This document shows, piece after piece, positions 585-26,319 of a DNA stretch of 64,000 bases. The stretch's first letter is position 1. Every line of letters begins with the position of its first letter. Source of the DNA: an uncultured bacterium. Lineage in GTDB: Bacteria > Hydrothermota > Hydrothermia > WGAB01. The notes beneath the pieces were generated by a model. That model was not told the DNA's origin. It worked only from the letters and a program-made list of their open reading frames with translations, and made no database searches. A program made the translations under genes and the position numbers. Where the stretch lies: assembly GCA_964406105.1 (NCBI GenBank), contig CAYOQK010000024.1:27294-91293 (forward strand), in the 5' to 3' direction.

Positions 585-1343
585 ATGAAGCGCATCCTCA
601 CCGCAGATTTGGGGAACACCGCCGTGAACTTCGGCCTCTTTGAAGGCTCACGGGTGGTGGAAGTCCGGTCCATGAGCACCTTAGACCTCTCCACCGAGGC
701 AGTGCTGGATCTCCTGAGCGACTGGAACGACGTGGACTATGGGGTGTACTGTTCGGTGGTGCCCCATCTGCGGACGGAGTTGGAGCGCGCCCTGCACCAC
801 CTCACCGGCCGTACCCCCTTGGAATTGGTGTACGGCGATCAGATTCCCTTTCGGGTGCACTACGCCAACCCGGTGAAACTGGGGGCAGATCGCTTGGCCC
901 ATGCCTTTTTTGTGCGCCGCAGTGTTCGGAGGAATGCGGTGGTGGTGGATATCGGCACCGCGGCCACAGTGGACTTCATCCTGGGCACCGGCGAGTTCCT
1001 GGGAGGCGCCATCCTGCCCGGCCCTGAGTCTGCCCTGGAGGGGCTCACACGCCGCACCCATCAACTCCCCCGGTTCCAATGGTCAAACATAGAGGGGTTC
1101 GTGGGCCATTCCCCTGAGGAAGCCATGGAAATCGGGATCCTTCGGGGCTTGGAGGGCGCCCTTTTATACATCGTGGCCCAAGGCGAACAGGAATTGGGCC
1201 TCCGGTTCCCCTCCAAGTACATCACCGGCGGGCTGGCCCCCTTGATTCGGCTCCCGGGTTTCCAGGCCCTTCCGTACCTTACCCTGCACGGGCTCAAGGA
1301 CTACCTGGAAGAGTATGCCGAAACCTACCGCATCCCCGACTGA
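585..1343 (+). CDS. coaX: type III pantothenate kinase
   Basis: 252 aa. N-terminal DLGNTAV (DxGNT) motif, GADRLA and VVDIGTAATVD motifs of the Bvg-accessory-factor/CoaX acetate-sugar-kinase fold. Confidence 0.85.
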   Translation: MKRILTADLGNTAVNFGLFEGSRVVEVRSMSTLDLSTEAVLDLLSDWNDVDYGVYCSVVPHLRTELERALHHLTGRTPLELVYGDQIPFRVHYANPVKLGADRLAHAFFVRRSVRRNAVVVDIGTAATVDFILGTGEFLGGAILPGPESALEGLTRRTHQLPRFQWSNIEGFVGHSPEEAMEIGILRGLEGALLYIVAQGEQELGLRFPSKYITGGLAPLIRLPGFQALPYLTLHGLKDYLEEYAETYRIPD

Positions 1344-1353
1344 GCCACCGGCC

Positions 1354-2454
1354 ATGAACCCCCGAAACCTTCCCCTCAAACGCCTGGATCGTTACGTGCT
1401 CTCCCAGTTTTTTCAACTGTTCGTCATCATGGTGGCGGCCGTGATCCTGCTTTTCATCGTCGTCAACTTCTTTGAACGCCTGGACAAATTCGTGGACCGC
1501 AAGGCCCCACCCTGGGCAATCCTTCGGTTCTACTGGTTCCAGATCCCCTATCTTTACGTGCTGTTTTCGCCCGTGGGAGCCCTGCTGGCGGCCTTCTTCT
1601 CCGTGGGGGAGATGGCCCGACGGTACGAGATCCTGGCGGTGAAAACCGCTGGAGTCCCGGTGTATCGCTTTTTGGCGCCCCTGGTGGTGGCAGGGATCTT
1701 GTTGTCGGCGGTGGCCTTCGGCGTCAACGACCTGTGGGTTCCGGAGGCCCAGCATCGGGTACGGGAGATCAAAACCTACGAGCTGCATCTGGAAAGCCCG
1801 CGCACCATCAAACGCCTGCGGGACATGGCCTTTCTGGGCCAAGGCGGCGTGCTGTATTACTTCGGCAAGGTGGTCAACGATACGCTGGCGGTACAGGCCT
1901 CCATCACCCGCTTGGATTCCCTGGAACGGGTGGTGTTCCGGGTGGACGCGGATACCGCGGTGTTCCGACAGGGCCACTGGCACCTGAAACACGGCACCGA
2001 GTTCCGGTTTGAAAACGGCCGGCCCACCCAGGTGACCCTGTTCCGGGCGCGGGCATATCCGGAGTTCACCGAAACCCCAGCCCAGTTTCTAAAGCAACGG
2101 CGGCGTTTAGACGAACTGAACATTCGGGCCCTTCGTCGGCTCATTCACACCTTGGAACAGGCGGGGTTTGATACCAACCGCGAGCAGGTGGAGCTCCAGG
2201 TGCGTTTTGCCTTTCCCCTGGCCAATCTCATCGTGCTCCTGTTCGCCTTGGCCCTGTCGGTGGAAATGCGGGGCCGTGGCCGGGCCTATGGCTTTGGACT
2301 GGCTGTGTTCGTGGCCTTCTTTTACTGGGGCCTTCTGCAGGCCACCCGGTCCATGGCGGGCGTGGGCCAACTGAACCCTGTGTTCTCTGCGTGGTTTCCC
2401 AATTTGGTGTTCCTGGTGGCCGCCCTCTGGGCCTTCCGCCGTGTCCGCACCTGA
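1354..2454 (+). CDS. LptF/LptG (YjgP/YjgQ) family LPS export permease
   Basis: N-terminus LKRLDRYVLSQFF followed by a hydrophobic TM is a classic LptF/G start, with a large periplasmic domain then C-terminal TMs. ATG at 1354 chosen over the ORF-track start 1315, which overlaps coaX. Confidence 0.75.
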   Translation: MNPRNLPLKRLDRYVLSQFFQLFVIMVAAVILLFIVVNFFERLDKFVDRKAPPWAILRFYWFQIPYLYVLFSPVGALLAAFFSVGEMARRYEILAVKTAGVPVYRFLAPLVVAGILLSAVAFGVNDLWVPEAQHRVREIKTYELHLESPRTIKRLRDMAFLGQGGVLYYFGKVVNDTLAVQASITRLDSLERVVFRVDADTAVFRQGHWHLKHGTEFRFENGRPTQVTLFRARAYPEFTETPAQFLKQRRRLDELNIRALRRLIHTLEQAGFDTNREQVELQVRFAFPLANLIVLLFALALSVEMRGRGRAYGFGLAVFVAFFYWGLLQATRSMAGVGQLNPVFSAWFPNLVFLVAALWAFRRVRT

Positions 2455-2510
2455 ACAAAAGCGGCCCCAGGGGTTCCCCGGGGCCGCTCCAAGAGAACGA
2501 TCAACACACC

Positions 2511-4349
2511 TCAGCGCAGGATCACCACACGGGCAGTTTGGGCATGGGAACCCGCCTGCACCCGCAGGAAGTACACCCCTGAGGCAATGGCGTTCAGGTC
2601 TATCGGCCAGGTATGTTCTCCTGGCGGTACAGTGCCCCGGAACCAGCGATAAACCCGCCGGCCAGCACCATCGTAGAGATCCACGGTAAGGGCGGTTTGG
2701 GTGGCCACCCGTACCTGCAACCGGGCTTGCCGGTGGATCACCGAAGGCACGCGGAGGCTCAGGGCCGGTGCACTGGAGCCGGACTCAGCCACCTCCACGT
2801 AGATGAACACGAAATCGTCATCACCTCGGGGCTCAATGGTGTATCCGCCGCCCACGTACCGTACCACGCCGGTGACGCCAAGGGTATCGCCCTCATGGGG
2901 CTGGTACGTGTACGCATCGCGGTTGCCCACCCGGGCGATGCCCGAGCCGTCGTCAATTTCAAAGTAGGGGCCGCCTTCGTTGGGGTTCACCACCCAAGCG
3001 GTATCCACCCGTACCAGCACACCTTCGTAGGGCTCACCCCCACCGCCGGGTGCGAGGGTCCCGGTGGAGATGTCCACGGGTTCGGGCAAGGGGTGGCCGC
3101 TGGAAATCACACGGAAGAAGATCACGTCCACGATCTCGGTCATGTGGTAGTACTCGTACACCGAGCCCACCAGGATCACGGAGTCGCCCATCAGGGGTTC
3201 GTGGTCATAGTCGTACACCATGATGCCGGAGAAGGGCCCGCCTTGGGCCTCTTCAATGTAGTACCAGTTGGAGGCCGTGGAATCCACGGTGCAGATGCCG
3301 GAAACCGCCACCCGGCGGCCCACCCAGTTGCTGGTGCCGGTATCGGTGGTATCGCTCTGCAAGGTGACGATGGACACCAAGCCGCCCCAGAACCGCGCGG
3401 AATCCAGAGGCATAGTGTTCCCCGCGGTATCCTGCACGCCGGACACGAGCAGCAGGTACTCTTCACCTGCCGTCATCGGGGTGGTGGCGAGGTGCACCAG
3501 TTTGGGGTTGGCGGCGTCCAAAGTGGCCGAGACCACCGACACCCCGCCCGAGAGGGTGTAGTTTGCCGGGTTCTCGGCTGAGGTTTCCTCTACCGGTGCG
3601 GTGAAGTACACGTATACCGAGTCAAACCCAATGGCAAAGGCCGTGGAGAGGTGCAGCACGTGCACCTGGATGTCATCGTCGGAGCGGGGTTCAATGCGGA
3701 ACAGGCCGTAGTACACCCGCACGGGTCCCCGCACCGTGAGGTGGTCTCCCAGTTGGGGGGTGTAGGTGTAGTTGCCGTTGTTGCGGATGTACACGTAGCC
3801 GGTGCCATCGGTCACCTCCCAGTCGTTGTTGGGCCCGGAGGTGCTGGTGACATACACGCTGGGGAGTTCCACCAGCACGCCTTCGTAAGCCTCGGCCGAG
3901 TCCGGCGGGTACATGCTGGTGGCCGAGGTGTCCAGATAGCCGCAGTAGATCTGGGCGGCCGGGGGAAGCGAATGCCCGCTGGACACGATGATGGCATCGG
4001 AGGCACTGCTGACCTTGATTTCGGTGTTGCCGTAGTATTCGTCCACCTGGCCGGTGATCACCACAGAATCCCCTTTCTCAATGGGCACCACCGCTTGGTT
4101 GCTGGTGAAGTACACCTGGATGCCGGACCAGGGGCCACCATTGGATTCGGCCAGGAAGAACACCCGAGAACCGGCCACTTCACCTACATCGGAGACGGCG
4201 ATGCCGGTGGTGGTGACCACCTGGCCGATGTAGGCCGAGGTGTCCGACCCGGGCAGGCGGTTCCCCTGGATCTCATGGATCGGCACAAACTCCTGGGCCG
4301 CCAGCCACCCAGGCAGCAAAGCCAGCACCCACATCCACCTTTGCATCAT
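2511..4349 (-). CDS. secreted protein with T9SS C-terminal sorting domain and an internally duplicated two-domain module
   Basis: Signal peptide MMQRWMWVLALLPGWLAAQE. C-terminus GVYFLRVQAGSHAQTARVVILR is a typical Por/T9SS CTD. Two copies of an [IxEIQG...YYGNTEI] + [YEGVLV...G.Y.IEPR.DDD] module resemble the N-terminal domains of ExeM/NucH-type extracellular nucleases, but no catalytic domain is present. Confidence 0.7.
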   Translation of the reverse strand: MMQRWMWVLALLPGWLAAQEFVPIHEIQGNRLPGSDTSAYIGQVVTTTGIAVSDVGEVAGSRVFFLAESNGGPWSGIQVYFTSNQAVVPIEKGDSVVITGQVDEYYGNTEIKVSSASDAIIVSSGHSLPPAAQIYCGYLDTSATSMYPPDSAEAYEGVLVELPSVYVTSTSGPNNDWEVTDGTGYVYIRNNGNYTYTPQLGDHLTVRGPVRVYYGLFRIEPRSDDDIQVHVLHLSTAFAIGFDSVYVYFTAPVEETSAENPANYTLSGGVSVVSATLDAANPKLVHLATTPMTAGEEYLLLVSGVQDTAGNTMPLDSARFWGGLVSIVTLQSDTTDTGTSNWVGRRVAVSGICTVDSTASNWYYIEEAQGGPFSGIMVYDYDHEPLMGDSVILVGSVYEYYHMTEIVDVIFFRVISSGHPLPEPVDISTGTLAPGGGGEPYEGVLVRVDTAWVVNPNEGGPYFEIDDGSGIARVGNRDAYTYQPHEGDTLGVTGVVRYVGGGYTIEPRGDDDFVFIYVEVAESGSSAPALSLRVPSVIHRQARLQVRVATQTALTVDLYDGAGRRVYRWFRGTVPPGEHTWPIDLNAIASGVYFLRVQAGSHAQTARVVILR

Positions 4350-4402
4350 CGTTGAACCTCCTTGCTTGTTCTTCAGGTTCGCCGGCCCGATGGCCGGGCC
4401 TT

Positions 4403-5707
4403 TCAGAATCCTACGCCAAACTCTTGCAACACTTGAACGAATACCTGGGCCGCTCGGCCCTGCCCGTTGAGCTTATGCAACGGGAACCCCAAAAACACCA
4501 CCTGGGCAGGTCCACCAGCCGGATACCGCAGCGACACAAAGGCCGCTGACCAGTTGACCAGATCGGGGAACCGATACAACCCTTCGCTCATGGAGTCGGG
4601 AACGAAGCCTGTGATGTGGGACAGGATCGGCACCGAGAGCCACAGGCTGTCGGGATAGGGGGGCACCGAGGTGACCAGAGGCCAGGGAGGCAACAGGAAC
4701 TTGTCCAGCGCCAAGGAATCGGGTTCGGCCACGTGCAGGTAATCTCTGACGAAGTCGTTGACCGTGGCCCCTACCAGCCGTTGGTTGCTCACATAGAGTT
4801 TTCCTCCCTGGTCCAGGAACTGGGCCAAGGCCCCCTGGGCGCCGGTAAAGTGTCCTCCTGAGGCCCCGGCGTACCACAGCAGGACCTCAAATCCCAGATC
4901 GTTGACCACTGCGTTAAGGTCTATGGGGCTGTAGGGCAGCCCCTCTTCCACCCGCCACACGGAATACAGGACGCCCAGGGAATCCAGCACCTGACGATAA
5001 AAGATCCCAGCGGTATCCCCGGGTTCGTCGTCCACCAACAGCACGGAGCCCACCGCAGGCTTCACCACAAAAGTGTCGGCTCGGACCTCGGACAGGGCAC
5101 CGGCATCGTCCAAGGCACGCACATGGAACACCCGCACGCCCGGGGCGAGGTTTCGGAGGGTTACTCGGGTGGTTTCCGCCGAAACGAAATGGGCAAAGGA
5201 ATCGGCATCGGTATCCAGCCACCAGAAGTACCCTTGGATGGTTTCATCGCCATCCTCGTCGTGGCCTTCCCAATAGAAGGTGACCACAGGGAACACCGTG
5301 TCTTGGGGCAAACTGCCCGGCAGGAACATCACCGTGGGAGGCGTATTGACCACCGGCAACGTCAGGGTGGCCGGGGTAGGGTCCAGGGCCCCCTCGTTAT
5401 CCTGGGCCCACACATACACCGTGTGAAACACGGGTTCAGGGCCGGAGGTGAACACAAAGGTGCTGCAATGGGAAGTGGTAAACCCTCGTTGCTGGGTATC
5501 GTCCACTGCCACGAAAAACCCGATCACCTCGCCATCAGGGTCGTTGCCGTACCAGCATAGGTGTTGCCGAGCCCCGGTGGTGTCCACCGTTCCCTCAATG
5601 AACAGATGGGTTTCCGGGGGTTGGTTGGGGACCGGCTCCGGTGCCGGTACCCGCTGGCACGCAAAGGCAAGCACAAGCCCTGCCAAAACAAATCTCAATC
5701 GCTTCAT
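4403..5707 (-). CDS. lipoprotein with repeated WxGxDxDG beta-sandwich-like modules and a C-terminal class-I-GATase/ThuA-like region
   Basis: Lipobox LVLAFAC. Repeats CWYGNDPDGEV... / YWEGHDEDGDETI.... C-terminal VLLVDDEP...LLWYAGASGG...GGKLYVS pattern. Start overlaps the upstream gene by 4 nt. Confidence 0.6.
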   Translation of the reverse strand: MKRLRFVLAGLVLAFACQRVPAPEPVPNQPPETHLFIEGTVDTTGARQHLCWYGNDPDGEVIGFFVAVDDTQQRGFTTSHCSTFVFTSGPEPVFHTVYVWAQDNEGALDPTPATLTLPVVNTPPTVMFLPGSLPQDTVFPVVTFYWEGHDEDGDETIQGYFWWLDTDADSFAHFVSAETTRVTLRNLAPGVRVFHVRALDDAGALSEVRADTFVVKPAVGSVLLVDDEPGDTAGIFYRQVLDSLGVLYSVWRVEEGLPYSPIDLNAVVNDLGFEVLLWYAGASGGHFTGAQGALAQFLDQGGKLYVSNQRLVGATVNDFVRDYLHVAEPDSLALDKFLLPPWPLVTSVPPYPDSLWLSVPILSHITGFVPDSMSEGLYRFPDLVNWSAAFVSLRYPAGGPAQVVFLGFPLHKLNGQGRAAQVFVQVLQEFGVGF

Positions 5708-7518
5708 TTCACGATCAGAAACTTGGTTCGTTTCACCTGTCCCGTGGCGTGGTCCCGAACCACCACGTAGTACAGGCCCGTGGCCACTGGAAACCCGCGG
5801 TCGCTGATCAGGTTCCAGGCTTCCTCGCCGCTATAGGGATCATCGTGCTCCAGGGTTTTCACCAAGTCTCCAGCGAGGTTGTAGATGTAAAGGGTCGCCC
5901 GCTGGGGTAGGTTGTAGAACCGGATCTGGCGGCCATAGGCGCCTGGAGCATCAAACCGCGAGGAAAGGTGATAGGGGTTGGGGTATACGCCGATTTCTCG
6001 GTCTGGCTCGCTGGTGGGCGGGGTGCCAGGCACCACTCGGGTGGCGTTGTTTCTTAGGGCACTTTCCAGCGGTGGGAGGCCGATTTCAGGATCCCCTTGG
6101 TCAAAGGAAGTGACGGCGTACTCGTACACAAACCCGTTCTTCAGGCCGGTATCCTCAAACCGGTACCAGCCGCGATAGGCGCCGGTATCCACCGTGTCCG
6201 GCAGGCCCACGTTAAAGCCCAGGGAATCCACCCGATCAAACTCCTTCAGCAGGATCCAGGTGGTATCTGGCCAGTGTCGTCGGTACACCCGATACCCTTC
6301 AAAGTCCAATTTTCCGGTGCTGGGGTCGGGGGCGGTCTCTGGGCTTCGGTCCCAGTAGAGGGTGGCCCTGTGGTTCCCAGGGATCACCACCAGGCGTGGG
6401 GAAGGCGGAGGACCAGGGAGAACGTAGTGGGCATCGTAGGCCTTCTGGGCCCATCCGGCGTTTTCCAGCAGATGGTCCAATGATTCCCCACCCACAAAGG
6501 CCACCACCAACTGCACCGAATCCTGGTTAGACAACGAAGCAAAGGGGCCCACGGAGATCATGGAAATGGGATCGGGGTAGCCGTGTTCGGCCACGTACTC
6601 ATCATCCACATCTGGATCACGTAGAGTGTCGCTCAGGAGCTGGTAGCGTTGGATGTCCGACACCGAACCGGTCATGTCTTGCCAGGACCACCACTGGAAA
6701 CCCACCTGCAGAGAATCCAGGGGAATTCGGTGGTCATTGAACGCCACCCCCAGGAGTTTGAGCCCAATATACTGGGTGGCCACGGTGTCAAAGCCGTCGT
6801 TCCGCTCGTAAATGAGGTGCAAGGAATCCAGGTACACCAAACGTTTGTGCTGAAAGAAGGGGGTTCGGCCGAACTGGTCGCCCCAGAACTCCCGGTTACC
6901 AGTGACCAATTCGGCGTACATGCCCAAGAAGAGATCCAGGAGCAGCCCCAGGCCCGTGTAGTGAACGGTGTAGGTAACGATTACGAAATCGTCGGCAAAG
7001 GGGTAACTCCAGGCATAACTGCGGAGATCCACCTTCAGGTGCAGCGGGGTGTGGTTGGGTACAGGTTGGAGATCGTCGTAGAAGGTGGCCAAGAAATCCT
7101 CCTCGGAGACGGCCTCAGGTGAGTAGTAGGGAGAGGTCAACAGGCTGGAGCGGATGCGTATGGTGTCGCTATCTGCTGGGGTGGGGTAAAACTCAAAGCC
7201 CTCAGAGCCTGCGGTGGCGCTGGTGGCGTCCACCACGCCGGTGGTCACCAGGGTATCGCCCTCGGTGGTCACCGCACCCACCCAAAGGCCTCCCCGATAC
7301 AGGTGTTCGGTACCCGACCCCCGGGGGTACTCCAAGGAGGGCAAGGGGTCGCCGGTGGCAGGGTCATACACCCGGAACCCGTTGCCCAGCATGCCAAAGT
7401 TGGTAATGGTCAACGACAGGTTGCCCACCCGGGTGTAGTGGGTGATGTCGGTTTTTGCGACCAGAGGGGCCACAACGAGGCCCACTCCGACGAAAACGGG
7501 CCAGAGGCGTCGGATCAC
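5704..7518 (-). CDS. secreted protein with T9SS C-terminal sorting domain
   Basis: 604 aa. N-terminal hydrophobic signal. C-terminus GLYYVVVRDHATGQVKRTKFLIVK matches the T9SS CTD. Has an FN3-like internal region. 4-nt overlaps on both sides indicate operon coupling. Confidence 0.7.
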   Translation of the reverse strand: MIRRLWPVFVGVGLVVAPLVAKTDITHYTRVGNLSLTITNFGMLGNGFRVYDPATGDPLPSLEYPRGSGTEHLYRGGLWVGAVTTEGDTLVTTGVVDATSATAGSEGFEFYPTPADSDTIRIRSSLLTSPYYSPEAVSEEDFLATFYDDLQPVPNHTPLHLKVDLRSYAWSYPFADDFVIVTYTVHYTGLGLLLDLFLGMYAELVTGNREFWGDQFGRTPFFQHKRLVYLDSLHLIYERNDGFDTVATQYIGLKLLGVAFNDHRIPLDSLQVGFQWWSWQDMTGSVSDIQRYQLLSDTLRDPDVDDEYVAEHGYPDPISMISVGPFASLSNQDSVQLVVAFVGGESLDHLLENAGWAQKAYDAHYVLPGPPPSPRLVVIPGNHRATLYWDRSPETAPDPSTGKLDFEGYRVYRRHWPDTTWILLKEFDRVDSLGFNVGLPDTVDTGAYRGWYRFEDTGLKNGFVYEYAVTSFDQGDPEIGLPPLESALRNNATRVVPGTPPTSEPDREIGVYPNPYHLSSRFDAPGAYGRQIRFYNLPQRATLYIYNLAGDLVKTLEHDDPYSGEEAWNLISDRGFPVATGLYYVVVRDHATGQVKRTKFLIVK

Positions 7519-8528
7519 GGTTCACCTCCCTCGCTTCCTGGCCGCACCGGTCGGATGTACTTTTCCAGCCATTCTCCCTGGGGGCTTTGGAAGGCGATGT
7601 ACAGGGTCATGCCGTCGGGGGTGGTGGCACAGGACACCGGCCGGGCCATGGAGTCATCCGGGTGCCGGGTTTCCACGACGAAGGCGCCGGTAGATCCAAA
7701 CTTCTGCACCCGGTGGTTGCCGTAATCGGCCACGTACACCGCCCCGGAGGTGTCCACCGAAACGTCCACGGGCTGCAGGAAATAGCCAGGCAGGGTGTCG
7801 CCCTCGTGTGAGGTTCCGCCCAGGTGCAGGAGATTCACGCGGGGCGTATCCACGGAGATGGCCTCCACCCAGTTGTGGCCGGTGCTGGCGACATACACCG
7901 CTCCCTGGTGGTAAAACAGGCCGCGGGGATCCTCCACGTTGAGGATCCCTGAGCCTGGGCCTGCCAGGGTGTCCAACAGGTTTCCAGAGGTATCACACAC
8001 CAGCACCAGGTCCAGGTTTCGCACCGACAGGTACAGGCGATGCTGATCGTCCACGGTGAGGCCCCCGGGCACCAACTGCTGCCACAGGGTATCGGGCTGG
8101 CCGTTGACGGTATCCACCCGTTGGACCAGCCACCGGTCAATGGCAAAGGCCGCCACAGGGGTACCTCCCAGGGAAAAGCCTCGGATCTCTTGTTGGGCGG
8201 AGTCCACCACCCACAGGGTGAAATCCGGGGCTTGGGCCACCGCCACAGGTGTTTCCAAGCCTTCAAAGGCTACCGAGGACGGGACCCCGTTGGTGAAGAA
8301 CCTGCGGAGCCCTTGCTGATCCACCACGTAAAGAAAGCCGTCTCGTCCCAGGTACAGATCGCGAACCCCCTGCACCTCCAGGGGCACTTCGGGCCAGCCT
8401 TCCACCCGTACATAGGAGGATTCCGGGGGCATTCCGGTGTTCCCCACCGGAGGCAGCGGGTACTTTCGGCCGCACCCCAGCATCAGCAGGGTTGCCCATG
8501 TGATGAGGCCCAGGGTTCCCGTTCTCAT
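7515..8528 (-). CDS. NHL-repeat lipoprotein (six-bladed beta-propeller)
   Basis: Lipobox LMLGCG. Repeated YVAD.GNHRVQKF-type NHL motifs (VYVADYGNHRVQKF, LYLSVRNLD, LYVVDQQ). Confidence 0.65.
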   Translation of the reverse strand: MRTGTLGLITWATLLMLGCGRKYPLPPVGNTGMPPESSYVRVEGWPEVPLEVQGVRDLYLGRDGFLYVVDQQGLRRFFTNGVPSSVAFEGLETPVAVAQAPDFTLWVVDSAQQEIRGFSLGGTPVAAFAIDRWLVQRVDTVNGQPDTLWQQLVPGGLTVDDQHRLYLSVRNLDLVLVCDTSGNLLDTLAGPGSGILNVEDPRGLFYHQGAVYVASTGHNWVEAISVDTPRVNLLHLGGTSHEGDTLPGYFLQPVDVSVDTSGAVYVADYGNHRVQKFGSTGAFVVETRHPDDSMARPVSCATTPDGMTLYIAFQSPQGEWLEKYIRPVRPGSEGGEP

Positions 8529-9523
8529 CTTACCTCCAGGCTGATCCGGTCCACGTCGCCCAGGTATCCCATACCGGTACGGGCGTAATCAAAGGCGATC
8601 TGGTGTCCGCCCACCGACACCCGAACCCCAAAGCCCAGGCTTAGGCCTGAGGGCAGGGTTTCTCTACCTGGTCCTCGGCCGTTCAGTTGGTACCCGGCCC
8701 GAAGGAACAGTTTGTGGGCCACCGTGTATTCGGCTCCCAACCGGAAGGTTTCCATGAAGTCTGAGGGCTTTTCCAGTTGCAGGGCCAGGAGCAACGACCG
8801 CGTTGCGTATCCGGAAACCCCCATGCGATACACCACGGGCAAGGCAAAGGCTTGGTACATGGAGCCATCTTGGGGACGAACATCCGGGCCGATGTTGCTC
8901 AGGGCCACGCCCACTTGGATGCCTCGGTACCCCACATCGTACAGGGTGCCAAGATCCAGCGCCACGCCGAAGGTTCGGGTTACGTAAAGGTCTTCGCCGA
9001 GCACCTTGAGGTTCACTCCGAAGGAAAAGCGATCGCTGATCCGGAGGGCATAGTTCAGGCCAGCGAGGTAATCGCCGTAGCGGAAATACTCGCCGGTGCC
9101 TTCGGGGTGGTACTCGTCGGTCACCCGCATGGGATCGGTGCCCAGGTAGCCCACGAAGAGGCCCCAGGCACTCCCCTGTCGCCAGGGTTGGGCCCAAGCG
9201 ACAAAGGTGTACTGCACATCTACAGGCCACAGAGCGTGCGATGCTCCAGCCACAGGTCCCCTCAGGAAGCCGATCCCTGCGGGATTCCAGTAGGGGGCGG
9301 TCGCGTCGGTAGCCTGGGAAACGTAAGCCCCACCCAAGCCTACGGCCCGTGCGCCCACACCGATCTTGAGGAAGGCGAAGGCGGTGGTTCCCACCTTTTG
9401 GCCTCCCAGGATTTCAAAGAACCCGGCATTCAGGGGTGGGGTAAGGAACCCGATCGCGAGGCAAAGCCCCCACCACCAAGCCCAGAAGTGTTGCCGTGTG
9501 TTGTTTTGCATACCGCTCCTCAA
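8525..9523 (-). CDS. PorV/PorQ-family (FadL-like) outer-membrane beta-barrel protein
   Basis: 332 aa. N-terminal motif FLKIGVGARAVGLGGAYVSQATDATAPYWNPAGIGF resembles the PorV signature (ARAAGMGGA...WNPA). Alternating amphipathic beta-strands throughout. Confidence 0.6.
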   Translation of the reverse strand: MRSGMQNNTRQHFWAWWWGLCLAIGFLTPPLNAGFFEILGGQKVGTTAFAFLKIGVGARAVGLGGAYVSQATDATAPYWNPAGIGFLRGPVAGASHALWPVDVQYTFVAWAQPWRQGSAWGLFVGYLGTDPMRVTDEYHPEGTGEYFRYGDYLAGLNYALRISDRFSFGVNLKVLGEDLYVTRTFGVALDLGTLYDVGYRGIQVGVALSNIGPDVRPQDGSMYQAFALPVVYRMGVSGYATRSLLLALQLEKPSDFMETFRLGAEYTVAHKLFLRAGYQLNGRGPGRETLPSGLSLGFGVRVSVGGHQIAFDYARTGMGYLGDVDRISLEVR

Positions 9524-12129
9524 AAGTTTGCCGACAGGCCGATTTGGACACTTCGGGGTTCCCGATACCGAGCGGGGTTGAGCATCATCTCAGGGGTCGT
9601 GCGGGGCGGCAGCGGATCTCCAGGTTCGTAGGCTCGCCCTGTCACCGGGTTCACGTAGTACACGTTCCGGTGATTGAACAGGTTCCGCACCGACACCTGG
9701 AGGGTCCAGGAGCCGTGGAGCCAGCGGAACCCCTTTCGGAAGGACACATCTACCCGATGCCAAGGGGGTCCCAGCCGAGAGTTCCGCTCTCCGGGGTTGC
9801 CCAGGGTGTCTATTGGGGTATAGCGTCGGCCAGCGCTGTAGGAGGCGTTGACCACCAGTTGCCAGTCGTCGGGCAGGGTCCAGCGGCCGAGCACCGGGTG
9901 TTCGCCTGGGCCCCAGCGATACCCCAGGGTGAGGAACAGTTCGTACGGGCGGTCCCACCGCAGGTACCATTCGCCCAGGCTCTCCTCGGCGCCCACGAAA
10001 TAGAAGTCTTCCTCGGTGGAAGACCGTCCTTTGGCCTGGGACAGGGTCCATTCCAAACGGCCGAACCAATGGCGAAACAGGCGGCGTTCCCACCGCCCCT
10101 CCAGGCCCACGGTGCGCGCATAATCGGCGTTGAAGTACATCCAGTAATCCGGATTCGGAGGGATGCCGGGCACCTTGCGGGCCGTAGGGTAGTTAAAAAT
10201 GTCCTTGTAATACGCCACCAGGGACACCTTGGTGTGATCGTTCAACAGGTGTTCCCAACCGAGCTCATAGGCCACGGTCACCTGGGGTTTGAGGTGGGGA
10301 TTGCCCACCAACTCGTAGGACGAAGAGGCCCGCACCCCCAACTTGGAGTACACGTACTTGAAATCGGGCATTTGGGAAAAATGGCCGTAGGAAAAGAAGA
10401 ACTTGTCCACATCGGTTACAGGGTAAGCAATGCCGATCCTGGGACTAAGGTGACCCTTGTAGCGGTAGCCCAGACGAGGAATCCGAGGGGTTTCGTCCAG
10501 GTACCGCTGGTACTCCTGGGCCACGATGGGGGCCAGATCGCCGGAGGCCAACCCGCGTTCCACCCCTCGGTCCAGGTACCGGCCGGGCACCCAAAAGTCG
10601 TACCGCAGCCCCACGTTGGCCACCATCCCCGCAAAGGTGATCCGATCCTGCAGGTACAAGCCGCCTCTGGTGGTGTACACCCGATACACATCGTGGTTCA
10701 GGCCCAACCCATCGGGGGAGTAGAACCAGGGGTACTGGATATCAATCCACTGGGCCTCGGTGTAGTTCAGGAGGAGGCCCATTTTGGTGGTGTGCACAGC
10801 CCTGGGCATCACGGTCCAGTCGGCCTTCAAGATGTAGCTCTCCACGTAGTGGTCGTGCCAGTACGGTGCATCGCCCGCATCGTAAAAGCCATAGGGCGGG
10901 ACATCGTCCCGCCGCTCCTGGTACTCGCTCCAGTGCTTGCCCTGTACATCCAGGTGGAGGTTGGAGAACACCCGGGAAAGCCGCACCTCGTAAAAGGACC
11001 GGGGAGAAAGCATCTCCTTGTAGGAAAGGATGGCCTGGTTGGAATGTCGGGTGAACACAGGGTAATGGTCCAGGATCTCAATGTAGCGATAAGGAAAGCC
11101 GTAGGCGAAGGGGTAATCGCGTCGGTAGTAAAAGTAGCCTTGATTGATCTCCAACGACTGGGTAAAGGTGAGGTAAAGCTTTCGGCGGTCGTTGGGCGTA
11201 GCTGCCAGTTTGAGGATGGCTGAGAGTTCGTTCTCCTCTCGGGGAGAGAGCCGATCCGTGCCCACCACCGAGGAGTACAAAGGACGGCCCACATGGGGCA
11301 GATAGGTGTCGGTGGTGCGGTAAAACAGGTTGCCGAACACCGTGAGCCGACCCAACAACGGAGCCTTTTGAACCAGGGGGCCGGAGAGCGAAGCGTCCAC
11401 TTGATCGGTGTTAAAGAAACGGAACAGATACGGGTGGTCGGTACGCACCGAGGCCGAGGTGTGCCAGCGGTCACCCCCTTCCCGGATCTCCACCTGGATC
11501 ACGCCCGACATGGCCTCGCCGTGTTCGGCATTGAAGCCTCCCAGCACGGCCTCGTACTCTTGAATCGCCGAGGAGGGGATGTACACCGTAAACGCATTGC
11601 CCGACAGGGGGTCCCGCACTGGAATGCCGTCAATCATCATGACGATCTCGTTGGTGCGGCCGCCCCGGATGTGCACCTCGCGGGTACCGAAACTCACCAC
11701 CCCCGCCTGGGTGCTTAAGGCGGTAACCGCGTTGGTGGCGCCCAGGTTCTCCAGGTCTTGGGAACTGAGGTTGCGCAGGGTTGCGCTCACCTTTTGTTCC
11801 AGCAGGGGGCGTTTGGCGGTCACCACGATCTCCTGTTCCAGGGTGATGGCCTCCTCTTCCAAGTAGAAGTCCAGGGTAACGGGGGTGTTGCCCCGAACCT
11901 CCACGGTGTAGGTTTTATCGGTATAGCCGAGCATGGAGGCCGTGATCCGGTACTTTCCCGGTGGCACATCAGGGATCACATAGGCTCCGTTTTCGTCGGT
12001 GGCCGCCCCCAAAGGAGTGCCTTCCAGGTAAACGTTGGCACCGGGCAGGCCTTTGCCCGTGCGGGCGTCATACACGTGTCCCTGCACGAAGCCACTGACC
12101 AGTACCAGCACAGGCACCCAAGCGAGCAT
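9520..12129 (-). CDS. TonB-dependent receptor with N-terminal carboxypeptidase-regulatory-like domain (SusC-like)
   Basis: 869 aa. Signal peptide, CarbD_reg-like GHVYDARTGKGLPGANVYLEGT...NGAY, plug region (VVTAKRPLLEQ, IRGG), long beta-barrel ending in terminal F (SANF). Confidence 0.85.
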   Translation of the reverse strand: MLAWVPVLVLVSGFVQGHVYDARTGKGLPGANVYLEGTPLGAATDENGAYVIPDVPPGKYRITASMLGYTDKTYTVEVRGNTPVTLDFYLEEEAITLEQEIVVTAKRPLLEQKVSATLRNLSSQDLENLGATNAVTALSTQAGVVSFGTREVHIRGGRTNEIVMMIDGIPVRDPLSGNAFTVYIPSSAIQEYEAVLGGFNAEHGEAMSGVIQVEIREGGDRWHTSASVRTDHPYLFRFFNTDQVDASLSGPLVQKAPLLGRLTVFGNLFYRTTDTYLPHVGRPLYSSVVGTDRLSPREENELSAILKLAATPNDRRKLYLTFTQSLEINQGYFYYRRDYPFAYGFPYRYIEILDHYPVFTRHSNQAILSYKEMLSPRSFYEVRLSRVFSNLHLDVQGKHWSEYQERRDDVPPYGFYDAGDAPYWHDHYVESYILKADWTVMPRAVHTTKMGLLLNYTEAQWIDIQYPWFYSPDGLGLNHDVYRVYTTRGGLYLQDRITFAGMVANVGLRYDFWVPGRYLDRGVERGLASGDLAPIVAQEYQRYLDETPRIPRLGYRYKGHLSPRIGIAYPVTDVDKFFFSYGHFSQMPDFKYVYSKLGVRASSSYELVGNPHLKPQVTVAYELGWEHLLNDHTKVSLVAYYKDIFNYPTARKVPGIPPNPDYWMYFNADYARTVGLEGRWERRLFRHWFGRLEWTLSQAKGRSSTEEDFYFVGAEESLGEWYLRWDRPYELFLTLGYRWGPGEHPVLGRWTLPDDWQLVVNASYSAGRRYTPIDTLGNPGERNSRLGPPWHRVDVSFRKGFRWLHGSWTLQVSVRNLFNHRNVYYVNPVTGRAYEPGDPLPPRTTPEMMLNPARYREPRSVQIGLSANF

Positions 12130-12414
12130 CGGGGAAAGTATAGGCCCTGGCGCGGCACACCCACAAGGCGAGGGAGGTTTCTGGCAACCTCGGCCCCACG
12201 TCCCTGGAGGTCTTACCGGGGGCCTTGCCTTTTACTTGAGCCCCAAGGGGTTGCAACGTGCTCGCTGCCGAAGAAAATGGGGTTGGGCGGGTTTATAAGT
12301 TTACGGCCCTCGGCCCGTTTCCCTTTGCCCATTCCTTCCCGGTGTTCCCAAGCCTCCGGTGGCCAGAGCCCTTGACACCCCCCTTACAATTGGAGAAACC
12401 AAGGGGGCTTTGCC

Positions 12415-14772
12415 ATGCATCACATCCAAAAGGCAGCTGTACTCGGAGCCGGGACCATGGGGAGCCAGATCGCTGCCCACCTCGCCAACATTGGCGTGGA
12501 TGTCCTGCTCCTGGACATCGTGCCGCCCGATGCTCAAGACCCGCAGGATCGCAATCGTTTCCCTCGCTTGGCCCTGCAAAGGCTTCAGAAGTCTCAACCC
12601 CCGGCTTTTTACCACCCTGATTTTGCGGGTCGCATCCGCATCGGGAACTTTGAGGACGATCTCCCCAAGGTCTCGGAGGTGGACTGGATCGTGGAGGCCG
12701 TGGTAGAACGGCTGGACATCAAGCGCGCCCTGTTTGAGCGCGTGGAGCAGTTCCGGACTCCCGGCACCCTGGTGAGCACCAACACCTCCGGGCTCTCGGT
12801 GAATCAGCTGGCCGCAGGGCGGTCCGAGGATTTCCGCCGCCACTTCCTGGGCACCCACTTCTTCAATCCTCCGCGCTTCATGAAGCTCTTGGAACTGGTG
12901 CCCCAGCAAGACACAGACCCCGAGGTGCTTCGGTTCATGGTGGATTTCGGCCGACGCCGGCTGGGAAAAGGTGTGGTGATCGCCAAAGACACCCCCAACT
13001 TCATCGCCAACCGTTTGGGCGTGTTCGGCATCCTGCACACCATCCACACCATGGTGGAAATGGATCTCACCGTGGAGGAGGTGGATGCCATCACGGGACG
13101 AGCCATGGGGCGACCCCGCACCGCCACCTTCCGCACCATAGACCTGGTGGGCTTGGATGTGCTCCTGCACGTTGCCCGCAATGTCTACGAGAACGCACCC
13201 AACGACGAGATGCGAGAGATCTTCAAACCCCCGGAGTTTCTGGAAAAGATGGTGGAACGGGGGCTCCTGGGCGACAAAGCCGGTGGCGGCTTTTACAAGA
13301 AGGAAAACGGTCGCCGCTTGGTGCTGGACTGGAAAACCCTGGAATACCGGGAACGACAGAAGCCGAAGTTCGCCTCGGTGGACACGGCCCTGTTAGAGGA
13401 CACCCCAGAGGCCCGAATCCGGGTACTGCTCCAAGGCAAGGATAAGGCCGCGGAGTTCGCCTGGCGTACGCTCTCGGCCTTCCTGACGTATGCGGCCCGC
13501 CGTATCCCTGAGATCGCCGACGATATCCTCAGCGTGGACAACGCCATCAAATGGGGCTTCAACTTCCGCCTGGGTCCCTTTGAAACCTACGATGCCATCG
13601 GAGTGCGGTGGTTCGTGGAACGGCTGGAACAGGAAGGCCAACCGGTACCTGAACGGGTGCAGGAACTCCTGGACGCAGGGAAAGACCGGTTTTACCTGCA
13701 AGAACCCACCCGTCGGCTGTACTTTGACTTCACCCGCAAAGACCACGTCCCCGAGGAACTGCCCGAAGGGGTTATCGTGCTGGAATACCTGAAGGCAGAG
13801 GGCCGCGAAGTTCTGGCGAATCCCGAGGCCAGCCTCATTGACCTGGGCGATGGCGTCGCCCTGCTGGAGTTCCACACCAAAGCCAATGCCTTGGGTCCAG
13901 GCACCATCCAGATGATCTTTGACAGCCTGGAAAAGGTCCGCAGCGACTTTGACGCCTTGGTGCTGGGCAACCGAGGCCGCCACTTCTCCGCGGGCGCAAA
14001 CCTGGCGTTGATCCTGCAGGCCATCGCCGAGGAGGAATGGGACGAACTGGACTACATGGTGCGGCGGTTCCAGCAGGCGGCTATGGCGCTCAAGTACTTT
14101 GAGAAGCCCGTGGTGGCCGCACCCTTTGGACGGGTACTCGGTGGAGGCACGGAGATCACCATGCACACCCACCGGGCCCAGGCGGCCGCCGAGACCTACA
14201 TGGGGCTGGTGGAGGTGGCCGTAGGCCTGCTGCCTGCAGGCGGTGGCACCAAGGAAACCCTGATCCGCTTTACCCAGGACATCATGGCAATCCCAGATGC
14301 CGATCCCTACCCCTTCCTGCGGGAGGCCCTGACCCAGATCGGGATGGCTAAGGTGTCCATGAGCGCCTACGAGGCCCAACAGATGCGGTACCTGCGGCCC
14401 GGCGACGGTGTAACGATCAACGACGATTTCCTGCTGCACGACGCCAAACAGGTGGCTTTAGAGATGGCTCGTACGGGGTTCACACCGCCCACCCCGAAGA
14501 AGATCAAGGTCACCGGTGAATCCGGCTTTGCGTATCTCCAGATGCTCATCTACAACCTGCTGGAGGGCAAACAGATCACTGAGCACGATGCCTTTATCGT
14601 CACCCAGATCGCTCGGGTACTCACCGGAGGCTCTGTTCCTTACGGCACCGAGCTCACGGAGCAGGATCTGCTGGATTTGGAGCGTGAGGCCTTCCTGCGG
14701 CTCTGTGGCACAGAGAAAACGCAGCAGCGCATCATCCACATGCTCAACACCGGCAAACCCCTCCGCAACTAA
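12415..14772 (+). CDS. fadN: 3-hydroxyacyl-CoA dehydrogenase / enoyl-CoA hydratase fusion (FadN-type)
   Basis: 785 aa. N-terminal Rossmann [14 protein letters not shown] (HAD NAD-binding), C-terminal crotonase fold ([17 protein letters not shown]). Followed by thiolase and ACAD as in the B. subtilis fadN-fadA-fadE operon. Confidence 0.85.
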
Positions 14773-14786
14773 CAGGAGGAACCATC

Positions 14787-15962
14787 ATGAGACAGGCCGT
14801 TTTGGCTTTTCCCGTGCGCACCCCGGTGGGCAAAGCACCCCGGGGCAGTTTGAAGGACACCCGGCCCGACGAACTGGCGGCCCTTGTGATCCGCGAAGTG
14901 GTCCGCCGGTCGGGCATTGACCCCCAGGAAGTGGACGACGTGATCCTGGGGTGCGCCTTCCCCGAGGCCGAACAGGGGATGAACGTGGCTCGGGTGGCCC
15001 TGATCCGGGCCGGCTTGCCGAACTCCGTGCCCGGAATGACCGTCAACCGGTTCTGCTCCTCTGGGCTTCAGGCGATCGCTATCGCTGCAGAACGCGTGAT
15101 GGTGGGGGCCGCAGATCTCATCATCGCCGGAGGCGTGGAGTCCATGAGCCGCGTGCCCATGGGCGGCTTCCGCTCCTCTCCCAACCCGTACCTGATGGAG
15201 CACTACCCCCAACTCTACATGGCCATGGGGCTTACCGCTGAGCGGGTGGCGGAAAAGTACGGCATTTCACGCGAGGACCAGGACCGCTTCGGATACGAGA
15301 GCCACATGAAGGCGGCCCGCGCGATCCGCGAGGGCAAGTTTCAGGAAGAGATCGTTCCCGTTCACACCCGCGTGATCCGTCGCACCGAGGACGGCGAGCA
15401 AGTGGTGCAGGAGATCACCTTGGAGGTGGACGAGGGGGTACGGTTTGACACCAGTTTGGAGAAAATGGCCCGATTGAAACCCGTGTTCAAACAGGGGGGA
15501 ACCGTCACTGCAGGCAATTCCTCGCAAATGAGCGATGGAGCAGCGGCGGTGCTCGTGATGTCGGAGGAGAAGGCCAAAAGCCTGGGCATTGAACCCATGG
15601 CGTACTTCCGTGGATACGCCGTGGCAGGCGTGCCTCCCGAGATCATGGGCATCGGCCCGGTGGAGGCCGTGCCAAAGGTGCTACGCCTTACCGGCGTACG
15701 CCTGGAAGACCTGGATCTCATTGAGCTGAACGAGGCCTTTGCCGCCCAATCCTTGGCCGTCATTCGGGAATTGAACCTGCCCTACGAAAAGGTGAACGTG
15801 AACGGTGGCGCCATTGCCTTGGGCCACCCCCTGGGCTGCACGGGCGCCAAACTCACCGCTACCCTGCTCTATGAGATGAAGCGCCGAGATGCCACCTTGG
15901 GCCTGGTGACCATGTGCATCGGCGGCGGCATGGGCGCCGCTGGCATCTTTGAACGCCGTTAA
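14787..15962 (+). CDS. fadA: acetyl-CoA C-acyltransferase (thiolase)
   Basis: 391 aa. Active-site Cys context [12 protein letters not shown]-terminal GGGMG motif region. Confidence 0.9.
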
Positions 15963-15976
15963 CCGGAGGGAAAACC

Positions 15977-17749
15977 ATGGCACAGGATACCCCGCTGTAC
16001 AAAAAGGGCGGAGGCTTTCTGCTGGCCGATACCCCGGCCGAGGAGATGTTCACCCCCGAGGAGTTCACCGAAGAGCAACGGATGTTTGCCCAGGCCGCAG
16101 ACGAGTTCATGGAAAAGGAGGTGCTCCCCAAAAACGAACAGATTGAAAAGCAGGACTTTGACCTGCTTCGTTACCTGATGAAGAAGGCTGGGGAACTGGG
16201 CCTGCTGGCGGTGGACATCCCGGAGAAGTACGGAGGCCTGGGGCTGGACAAGGTGTCTTCCATGCTCATCGCCGAGCGCATGGCCAAACAGGGGTCTTTC
16301 AGCGTAACCTGGGGCGCCCACACCGGCATCGGTACCCTGCCCATCGTGTTTTTCGGCACTGAAGAACAGCGGCAAAAGTACCTGCCGGGCCTGGCCTCTG
16401 CCGACATCATCGGGGCCTATGCCCTCACCGAACCCGGGGCAGGCACAGATGCCATGAACATCAAAACCCGGGCCGTTCTCTCGGACGATGGCAAGTCGTA
16501 CATTCTCAACGGCAGCAAACAGTTCATCACCAATGCGGCCATCGCCGATCTCTTCACGGTCTTTGCCAAGATTGACGGCGAGAAGTTCACGGCCTTTCTG
16601 GTGGAACGGGATACCCCGGGCCTGGAACTGGGCGCCGAGGAAAAGAAACTGGGCATCAAGGGATCCAGCACCCGAAGCCTGACCTTCAACAACGTCAAGG
16701 TGCCCGTGGAGAACGTGGTGGGCGAGATCGGCAAAGGACACCACATTGCCTTCGGCATCCTCAACATCGGGCGATACAAACTGGGCGTGGGCTCCGTAGG
16801 AGCAGCCAAGGAGGCTCTGAAGGTAGCGGTGAACTACGCCAAAGAGCGGGTGCAATTCGGCCAACCCATTGCCAACTTCGGCCTGATCCAAGAAAAGATC
16901 GCCCACATGACCACCCGCATCTTCGTTACCGAAACCATGGCGTACCGCTTGGCCGGGCTCCTGGACGAAGCCATGAAGGGCCTGGATCCCAACGCACCGG
17001 ACTACACCCAGAAGTCCTGGAATGCCGTGGCGGAGTATGCGGTGGAGTGCTCCATCCTCAAGGTGTACGGCTCCGAGATGCTGGACTACGTGGTGGACGA
17101 AACCGTACAGATCTTCGGAGGCTACGGCTACACCCAGGAGTACCCCGCAGAGCAGTACTACCGGGATTCACGGATCAATCGGATCTTTGAGGGCACCAAC
17201 GAGATCAACCGCATCCTGATCCCCGGGATGCTCATGCGGCGGGCCCTGAAGGGCCTGATCCCACTGGTCCCCGTAGCGGCCAAAACCGCCAAAGAGACCC
17301 TCACCCTAATGCCCACCATGATGCCGCGGCCCGAGGGGCCGTTTTCCAATGAGAAGTTCGCTCTGCAGATGGCCAAACGGATCGCCCTCACCCTGGCTGC
17401 GGTGGCAGCCGACAAGTTCAAAGAGGCCCTGCGTCAGGAGCAAGAGGTGCTCGCCGGTCTGGCGGATATCGTCACCGAGGTGTATGCCCTGGAAAGCATC
17501 CTCCTGCGTGCCCTCAAGTCGGGCCACCGTTTGATGGCCTCCATGGTAGAGATGTACACCTACGAGGCCATGAAGCGCATAGAGCTCCGGGCCTACGAGA
17601 TCCTGCCGTACATGAGCGAGGGCGACGAGCTCCGCACCCTGATCTCCACCGTCCGAAAACTGGTTCGGCCCTTTAGCCCGCCGAACCTCATCCAAAAAAG
17701 GAGGGAGATCGCCCGCACGGTCATTGACCAGGGCAAGTATCCCTTCTAA
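15977..17749 (+). CDS. fadE: acyl-CoA dehydrogenase (long form with C-terminal extension)
   Basis: 590 aa. ACAD N-terminal, middle and C-terminal domain motifs (YALTEPGAGTDA, GGYGYTQEYP...RDSRINRIFEGTNEI). Confidence 0.85.
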   Translation: MAQDTPLYKKGGGFLLADTPAEEMFTPEEFTEEQRMFAQAADEFMEKEVLPKNEQIEKQDFDLLRYLMKKAGELGLLAVDIPEKYGGLGLDKVSSMLIAERMAKQGSFSVTWGAHTGIGTLPIVFFGTEEQRQKYLPGLASADIIGAYALTEPGAGTDAMNIKTRAVLSDDGKSYILNGSKQFITNAAIADLFTVFAKIDGEKFTAFLVERDTPGLELGAEEKKLGIKGSSTRSLTFNNVKVPVENVVGEIGKGHHIAFGILNIGRYKLGVGSVGAAKEALKVAVNYAKERVQFGQPIANFGLIQEKIAHMTTRIFVTETMAYRLAGLLDEAMKGLDPNAPDYTQKSWNAVAEYAVECSILKVYGSEMLDYVVDETVQIFGGYGYTQEYPAEQYYRDSRINRIFEGTNEINRILIPGMLMRRALKGLIPLVPVAAKTAKETLTLMPTMMPRPEGPFSNEKFALQMAKRIALTLAAVAADKFKEALRQEQEVLAGLADIVTEVYALESILLRALKSGHRLMASMVEMYTYEAMKRIELRAYEILPYMSEGDELRTLISTVRKLVRPFSPPNLIQKRREIARTVIDQGKYPF

Positions 17750-17763
17750 AAGGAGGGCCCATC

Positions 17764-25836: not shown

Positions 25837-26319
25837 ATGGAACTCCATGTGGTGCCCGTGGAAAAACCCGAGGACATCAACTGTGTATTGGGCCAAGCCC
25901 ACTTCATTAAAACCGTGGAGGACGTGCACGAAGCCCTGGTGAACTCGGTCCCAGGGATCCAGTTTGGCTTCGCCTTCTGCGAGGCCTCTGGGCCGCGGCT
26001 CGTGCGCTACACCGGCACCGACCCTGAACTGGTGGATCTTGCCAAGAAGAACGCCCTGAACATCGCCGCCGGCCACGTGTTCGTGCTGTTCTTACGGAAC
26101 GCCTATCCCATCAACATCCTGAACGCTCTAAAACACGTGCCCGAGGTGGTGCGGATCTTCGCCGCCACCGCCAATCCCCTACAGGTGATCGTGGCGGAAA
26201 CCGACCAGGGCCGCGGGGTCTTAGGGGTGGTGGACGGCCAACCCCCCTTGGGGGTGGAAACCGAGGAGGACATCCAAAAACGGAAGTCCTTCCTCCGAAC
26301 CATCGGGTACAAACTATGA
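25837..26319 (+). CDS. adenosine-specific kinase-like protein (PF04008-like)
   Basis: 160 aa starting [35 protein letters not shown], matching the family pattern remembered as ...[30 protein letters not shown].... GGAGGT RBS 6 nt upstream. The ORF-track start 25459 is rejected. Confidence 0.6.

Follow-up and report, generated by a model that had tools for sequence, protein, structure and literature searches.

Six open reading frames (ORFs) on the minus strand fill positions 2511-12129 of the 64,000-nucleotide stretch analysed here (the window), which is part of contig CAYOQK010000024.1 from an uncultured bacterium of the Hydrothermota, and these six genes are a real operon-like cassette that recurs across many Bacteroidota-related phyla. 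In order of transcription they encode a TonB-dependent receptor, an outer-membrane barrel of the PorV/PorQ family, an NHL-repeat lipoprotein and three further proteins, termed P4, P5 and P6 (Table 1). Tentatively, and with a confidence that stops short of an even chance, we propose that the six products form one surface complex that would capture an extracellular polymer, most likely DNA or another nucleic acid, and import this polymer or its fragments via the TonB-energised receptor. The first five genes overlap one another by 4 nt (at 9520-9523, 8525-8528, 7515-7518 and 5704-5707), while P5 and P6 are spaced by 53 nt, a layout that had been described in an initial annotation of the DNA and is borne out here, as are its domain assignments by hidden Markov model (HMM) scans.

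The cassette is no chance neighbourhood, because the same genes recur jointly in dozens of independent loci. A barrel search of species-representative genomes gave 78 loci, whose neighbouring genes were identified by tblastn with the six proteins, and an independent set of 80 metagenomic loci, this time anchored on P4, was analysed by tblastn and with family HMMs built for this analysis. Nineteen of the P4-anchored loci have full flanks (at least 5 kb on the upstream side of P4 and at least 9.5 kb on the downstream side). The receptor, the barrel and P5 are found in all 19 of them, P6 in 18 and the NHL gene in 16, in agreement with the earlier suggestion of a co-conserved unit. In the three full-flank loci that lack the NHL gene, the sequence stops no more than about 0.1 kb from the barrel gene, and in type-A loci it is after the barrel that the NHL gene is positioned. 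The prevailing order, P4-P6-P5-receptor-barrel-NHL, is nearly fixed (20 complete and 10 truncated loci), with the two halves swapped (receptor-barrel-NHL-P4-P5-P6) in the window, in L085 and in a few others, comprising three complete loci as well as partial ones. The nearest relatives of the window cassette are located in metagenome-assembled genomes (MAGs) of candidate division WOR-3 (L001 and L002), where the orthologs share 78-93% protein identity and the same order, and named carriers include Zixibacteria (L079), Zhuqueibacterota (L081), KSB1 (L086), WOR-3 (L085) and a Flavobacteriales MAG (L011); Ignavibacteria and Eisenbacteria also appear among the source names of P4 homologs.

By tblastn, the receptor and a relative of P4 adjoin the barrel in many phyla, and a three-gene form consisting of the receptor, a long P4 and the barrel is present in Marinimicrobia, TA06, Melioribacteraceae, Chlorobiota and Hydrothermae (L003-L007, L010, L012-L017, L019, L020 and L023). 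A 1079-residue Marinimicrobia protein is homologous to P4 across its supersandwich and FN3 domains (hhalign probability 99.9, E-value 1.8e-31) and contains no P6-like part. The invariant core of the cassette is the receptor, P4 and the barrel, to which P6, P5 and the NHL lipoprotein are a frequent extension, and the most conserved partner of the receptor and barrel is P4 and not P6, the putative DNA-binding protein.

The link to nucleic acids derives from P6, which contains two modules of about 200 residues each that are 37% identical to one another (E-value 9e-27), together with a type IX secretion system (T9SS) sorting domain (TIGR04183, 27.9 bits versus a cut-off of 23). The window P6 matches the OB-fold nucleic-acid-binding family PF01336 (30.8 bits) and NF033681, a model of ExeM/NucH-type OB modules (E-value 8e-16), although the latter match reaches only 58 bits versus 300 and is confined to model positions 34-112; in the absence of an Exo_endo_phos match, P6 is not an ExeM/NucH nuclease, and no catalytic domain is found in it. 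Among 40 P6 orthologs, the T9SS C-terminal domain PF18962 is present in 38, PF01336 in 18 and DUF5689 (PF18942) in 7, the best PF18942 match having an E-value of 3.8e-7. The P6 family profile aligns by hhalign with a cassette-neighbouring LTD-OB-DUF5689 protein over 425 columns (E-value 1.5e-43) and matches residues 4-242 of PDB entry 9SF8, which is nuclease A (SpnA) from Streptococcus pyogenes (E-value 6e-12), a stretch that should be the OB3-OB4 pair given the domains resolved in that structure (OB3, OB4 and nuclease). Only the family profile reached SpnA, the single P6 sequence giving no match in the PDB. To bind and cleave DNA, SpnA needs its domains OB2-OB4 (PMC13601614), and several relatives of P6 have been labelled ‘YhcR endonuclease’ or ‘predicted extracellular nuclease’ by annotators of the Joint Genome Institute (JGI).

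In seven related loci the cassette is flanked by T9SS-secreted nucleases or by nuclease-like proteins with LTD and OB domains. These combine a T9SS C-terminal domain with Endonuclease_1 (L011), PLDc_2 (L083 and L084), Exo_endo_phos and LTD (L155), LTD (L157) or LTD, OB and DUF5689 (L118), and in L139 the neighbour is an Exo_endo_phos (EEP) protein. Three unrelated nuclease folds thus converge on the neighbourhood of the cassette; in L151 an adenosine deaminase gene lies upstream. Of the substrates contemplated by the initial annotation (extracellular DNA, a polymer or a metal complex), it is DNA that the OB/DUF5689 homology of P6 and the nuclease neighbours would favour.

DUF5689 proteins have been connected with DNA in two characterised systems. 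In the DNA-utilisation locus of Bacteroides thetaiotaomicron, the DUF5689 protein DdbD has been proposed to bind DNA as the partner of DdbC, a TonB transporter (PMC12478041), and in Riemerella anatipestifer the CarboxypepD_reg outer-membrane protein RA0C_RS04915, transposon insertions in which abolished transformation, and the DUF5689 protein RA0C_RS04920 are treated as essential for natural transformation (PMC8459023). The Riemerella pair is the precedent for an alternative in which the cassette provides the outer-membrane DNA-uptake step of natural transformation and does not serve feeding; the absence of a nuclease from the window cassette would suit the uptake of intact DNA, the two functions are viewed as evolutionarily related by the authors of the ddb study (PMC12478041), and a window ORF near 53.66-54.36 kb matches a double zinc ribbon of the kind present in ComF-family proteins. 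However, the cassette does have nuclease neighbours in several lineages, the window showed no ComEC, DprA or ComEA, its ComF-like call is unverified, and no cassette-carrying organism is known to be competent, so that a role confined to transformation appears improbable.

The receptor has the TonB box, plug domain and C-terminal beta-barrel of a generic TonB-dependent receptor, and it is matched by the Pfam models CarbopepD_reg_2 (PF13715, 76 bits), Plug (PF07715, 36.9 bits versus a cut-off of 23.9) and OMP_b-brl_3 (PF14905, 41.4 bits versus 27); against the cassette receptor HMM it scores 1095 bits. Its TonB-box-like motif EIVVTA (residues 100-105) directly follows the CarboxypepD_reg domain, and the corresponding motif, (E/D)(V/I)(V/I)-V-(I/V/T)-(G/A), is aligned in 36 of 36 receptor orthologs, which supports TonB-dependent import. 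Despite this SusC-like layout, the receptor falls outside the SusC/RagA family, for which the model TIGR04056 gives 60.4 bits over the N-terminal residues 15-174 only, versus a cut-off of 368. The lack of a SusD is consequently no anomaly in itself, and the premise of the initial annotation that a SusD partner is ‘missing’ is weak; no SusD-family match was found by Pfam among the six proteins or the other window ORFs scanned. Membership of the Oar-like group was likewise considered and rejected, PF25183 giving 29 bits over only 50 residues.

The neighbouring barrel belongs to the PorV/PorQ family (NF033709, 172.2 bits versus a cut-off of 90, covering model positions 1-324 of 326) and is not an unrelated FadL transporter; it also matches Flavobacterium johnsoniae PorV (6H3I, E-value 1.7e-5). 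It fails all three equivalog cut-offs, with 89.7 bits versus 220 for PorQ (NF033711), 61.2 versus 250 for PorV (NF033710) and 65.0 versus 325 for PorV2 (NF052325), whereas genuine Bacteroidales PorQ proteins in the same search reached 345-389 bits on NF033711. A cassette-barrel HMM scores 370 bits on the window barrel, at least 240 on barrels beside a receptor and P4, and no more than 160 on all other PorV/PorQ-family matches. In line with the initial annotation, these scores mark the barrel as a paralog dedicated to the receptor and set it apart from a housekeeping PorV or PorQ. In a neighbour-joining (NJ) distance tree of 98 PorV/PorQ-family barrels, the type-A and type-B cassette barrels each cluster apart from an unlinked PorV2-like group, but the deep branches are too short to support monophyly of all cassette barrels versus that group, which is why the claim of a private paralog is based on the gap in HMM scores and on the NCBIfam thresholds. 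The shuttle role initially proposed for the barrel is conjectural, and the barrel could just as well be a static anchor of the PorQ-PorZ kind. Adjacent pairs of PorV/PorQ-family barrel genes, with no linked receptor or P4, are located at L022 2625-4522 and L039 8959-10852; in the L039 pair one copy lies under the family cut-off and neither reaches an equivalog model.

Neither P4 nor P5 belongs to a Pfam family. The structure of P4 is predicted confidently (predicted local distance difference test, pLDDT, 90.7) as a supersandwich followed by an FN3 domain and a C-terminal beta-sandwich, and the catalytic (alpha/alpha)6 domain is absent from the model. Its C-terminal domain gives a sub-threshold TIGR04183 score (16.5 bits, cut-off 23) and matches the C-terminus of PorZ (E-value 1.4e-5). 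The P4 family, for which there is no Pfam model, comprises 1,581 clusters at 50% identity (E-value at most 1e-30), its named members are always annotated as hypothetical protein, and a PDB search with the P4 profile gave no match. A PorU-type sortase was considered for P4 because porU and porV are neighbours in Flavobacterium, but no peptidase C25 or PorU match was obtained and the supersandwich-FN3 fold differs. The P5 model (pLDDT 93) shows FN3/Ig domains with conserved Asp-rich motifs; its lipobox, LAFAC, has Cys17 at least 90% conserved. An enzymatic function was rejected for P5, since neither Cys nor His is conserved in its GATase1-like domain and it is therefore not an amidotransferase. 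The NHL protein scores 47.8 bits with PF01436 (cut-off 20) and matches the ScyF NHL model over residues 154-291 (E-value 4e-15).

The PorZ-like C-terminus of P4, the position of PorQ as the nearest named relative of the barrel, the very large size of the P4 family over many phyla and the lack of enzymes in the cassette are all compatible with an alternative in which the cassette is not a nutrient system but an accessory or lineage-specific part of T9SS secretion-attachment or of envelope assembly. The PorQ/PorZ-like pair of barrel and P4 would then bring material to the surface or attach it there, and the TonB-type barrel would have a structural or export function, as has been suggested for PorF or for Oar of Myxococcus, a TonB-type transporter that is reported to be required for protein secretion (PMC6434023). 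This alternative is nevertheless distinctly unlikely: the conserved TonB box and plug point to import, the receptor does not resemble Oar, the Bacteroidales have a separate, true PorQ, and the nuclease-type OB modules of P6 and the nuclease neighbours are left without a role.

Several observations count against the proposal of a nucleic acid-capturing complex and keep our support for it tentative. The core triad occurs without P6, which rules out DNA binding as its function; the supersandwich of P4 is a fold typical of carbohydrate-active enzymes; CBM_56 matches are present in 6 of the 40 P6 orthologs; and a chitinase gene (GH18 with a C-terminal domain) lies upstream of the cassette in L083. 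In addition, the window OB modules are very acidic (isoelectric points 4.1-4.3), which is unusual for DNA binders, although this point is tempered by the acidity of all soluble cassette proteins of the source organism. The window P6 has no match to PF18942 at an E-value of 0.01 or below, no nuclease is encoded among the six window genes or their flanks, a nuclease neighbour is absent from most related loci, and the likeness of the receptor to DdbC and RA0C_RS04915 extends only to the shared CarboxypepD_reg and TonB-receptor architecture. The first four of these points favour an alternative in which the architecture is the same and the substrate is a glycan or other non-nucleic polymer, with the supersandwich of P4 and the beta-barrel modules of P6 being carbohydrate-binding modules, as does the resemblance of the P5 alpha/beta domain to the middle domains of GH42 enzymes, Agd3 and PelA. 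However, the conserved set includes no glycoside hydrolase, the sole recurrent enzymatic neighbours are the nucleases of three unrelated folds, and the P6 modules share homology with DUF5689 and with the OB pair by which SpnA binds its substrate; a glycan substrate therefore appears unlikely.

On the favoured reading of nucleic-acid capture and import, P4 and P6 would cross the outer membrane through the T9SS via their C-terminal domains. The cassette barrel would bind the retained C-terminal domain of P4, and possibly that of P6, and so dock these proteins beside the receptor in the manner in which PorQ holds PorZ, a step suggested by the anchoring of PorU by PorV and of PorZ by PorQ (PMC12365241) and by the PorZ-like C-terminus of P4. 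Nucleic acid would be held by the two tandem-OB modules of P6, the same module that extracellular nucleases use on their substrate, while P4, with its supersandwich and FN3 domains, and the NHL lipoprotein and P5, at the surface or in the periplasm, may be lid or scaffold subunits. The receptor would move the substrate into the periplasm, and nucleases would be supplied from elsewhere in the genome or, in some lineages, by adjacent genes. A more specific and rather doubtful version of this scheme is a DNA-uptake machine of the outer membrane that is T9SS-assembled and found throughout the Fibrobacteres-Chlorobi-Bacteroidetes (FCB) superphylum, in which the dedicated PorQ-like barrel would dock lipid-free P4 as a lid and P6 as a DNA catcher onto the TonB receptor.

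Extracellular DNA is a major pool of phosphorus and nitrogen in sediments and soils, and most of the cassette-carrying lineages are uncultured and assumed to live on polymers. If the proposal is correct, the cassette would be a genomic marker of DNA foraging or uptake across much of the FCB superphylum. It would also imply that TonB receptors can take T9SS-secreted partners held on a private PorV/PorQ-type barrel instead of SusD-type lipoproteins, the DNA transporters recently reported from Bacteroidales and Riemerella would become part of a far older and more widespread system, and the P4 family would gain its first functional context. On the more specific and doubtful version, WOR-3, Zixibacteria, KSB1, Ignavibacteria-like and some Bacteroidota organisms would have a pilus-independent route of extracellular-DNA uptake, serving phosphorus and nitrogen foraging and possibly natural transformation; type IX secretion would be physically coupled to TonB-dependent import in a manner so far undescribed, and P4, P5 and the cassette barrel would each define a new protein family. 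No description of such a cassette turned up in literature searches on PorV2 and on TonB receptor operons with a PorV/PorQ paralog, whose coverage was too incomplete to prove absence.

The cassette is bounded by a convergent LptF/LptG gene (1315-2454, plus strand) and a divergent beta-oxidation operon (12415-19449, plus strand), with a G+C content of approximately 0.59-0.63 throughout and no compositional break. The interval 2300-12600 yielded no sigma-70 consensus site, and its terminator-like sites, being at background level, are uninformative. The remainder of the window is of housekeeping character (BamA, FtsH, ClpB, ribosomal protein S1, TilS, Lgt and others). It also includes, at 54355-57393 on the minus strand, a 1012-residue tricorn-type protease with PD40/WD40-like propeller repeats and Tricorn_C1, PDZ and Peptidase_S41 domains, adjoined by a 1662-residue ORF (57499-62487, plus strand) with no Pfam match at an E-value of 0.001 or below. 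Within the plus-strand ORF at 53135-54358, the region of approximately 53660-54358 has four CxxC motifs and a match to the Pfam double zinc ribbon DZR_2, the N-terminal signature of ComF-family competence proteins; its ComF-like identity is not confirmed, and a PDB sequence search with this ORF gave no match.

Table 1. The six cassette genes and the adjoining intergenic region in the window.
Feature	Position	Strand	Characteristics
TonB-dependent receptor, 869 aa	9520..12129	-	Signal peptide, CarboxypepD_reg-like N-terminal domain, TonB-box-like EIVVTA, plug, beta-barrel
PorV/PorQ-family (FadL-like) outer-membrane barrel, 332 aa, cassette-specific subfamily	8525..9523	-	NF033709
NHL-repeat lipoprotein (beta-propeller type, by sequence), 337 aa	7515..8528	-	PF01436, lipobox LMLGC
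P4, 604 aa	5704..7518	-	Signal peptide, ~340-aa galactose-mutarotase-like supersandwich, FN3, putative PorZ-like T9SS C-terminal domain
P5, 434-aa lipoprotein (LAFAC)	4403..5707	-	Two FN3/Ig-like domains and a GATase1/ThuA-like alpha/beta domain
P6, 612 aa	2511..4349	-	Signal peptide, tandem-OB modules ~20-231 and ~323-520 with Ig-like ~232-322 between, type A T9SS C-terminal domain
Presumed promoter region, divergent intergenic, upstream of the receptor gene	12130..12414	.	Position only

Variation around the standard gene set is seen in several related loci. In the Zixibacteria (L079 13948-16131 and L080 13648-15831) a seventh cassette gene between P6 and P5 encodes a 727-residue protein with an LVIVD-repeat beta-propeller and a FlgD_ig-type C-terminal domain, and in the otherwise standard cassette of L091 the same position (14046-16263) is occupied by a DNA methylase (N6_N4_Mtase and HTH_17) and a 378-residue ORF without a Pfam match, which may be a mobile or restriction-modification insertion. 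Two facing P4 genes are found in L136 (14582 bp), a lone P4 on the plus strand and, on the minus strand, a second cassette of the order barrel-NHL-P4-P5-P6-P6, in which P6 is duplicated. A gene for an Oar-like protein of about 1090 residues (CarboxypepD_reg and OMP_b-brl_4) lies at L081 2441-5707 (Zhuqueibacterota) and L086 6488-9778 (KSB1), just upstream of the cassette, and pyrimidine-synthesis genes are likewise located just upstream in these loci (OTCace and DHOase in L086, DHOase in L081). An MltD-like lytic transglycosylase gene (SLT and 4-5 LysM domains) is immediately upstream of the cassette or of P4 in L104, L115, L117 and L137, and the same gene type is present in the window at 26316-28037, 14 kb from the cassette.

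Compared with known systems, the sequences suggest that the cassette may work like an uptake complex of the SusCD or DdbCD type, with a putatively T9SS-anchored binder, a private barrel and three further conserved subunits. The closest parallels are DdbC-DdbD of the B. thetaiotaomicron ddbABCDEF locus and RA0C_RS04915/RA0C_RS04920, in which a CarboxypepD_reg TonB-type transporter is likewise combined with a non-enzymatic protein of OB/HIN-like, putatively DNA-binding modules, secreted nucleases occur in or beside the locus in several lineages and SusD is absent. In contrast to the ddb system, P6 combines a cleavable signal peptide with a T9SS C-terminal domain where the ddb protein is lipid-anchored; it comprises two modules and is encoded apart from the receptor gene. 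The cassette, moreover, adds the PorV/PorQ-type barrel, P4, P5 and the NHL lipoprotein, four components not described from ddb loci, and is spread over many non-Bacteroidota phyla. The P6 modules themselves show homology to the tandem OB pair located ahead of the catalytic domain in the nucleases SpnA (9SF8), ExeM/NucH and YhcR, but P6 lacks the nuclease domain and is, by its sequence, binding-only.

With the SusC/SusD utilisomes the cassette shares a TonB receptor with a CarboxypepD_reg domain and TonB box, encoded in one operon with lipoproteins and several binding proteins predicted to be exposed at the surface. It differs in having no SusD, a receptor that stays below the SusC/RagA model cut-off, no degradative enzyme in the conserved set, and two partners, P6 and putatively P4, that are T9SS cargo and not lipoproteins. 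The encoding of a PorV/PorQ-family barrel together with proteins that have a T9SS C-terminal domain (P6) or a putative one (P4) is in turn reminiscent of the PorQ-PorZ and PorV-PorU pairs of the Porphyromonas gingivalis T9SS attachment complex, in which such barrels hold proteins on the surface (PMC12365241), and the C-terminus of P4 is closest to that of PorZ. The cassette barrel, however, fails the PorQ, PorV and PorV2 equivalogs, P4 has a supersandwich where PorZ has beta-propellers, and, unlike the attachment complex, the barrel-P4 pair of the cassette is genetically tied to a TonB receptor.

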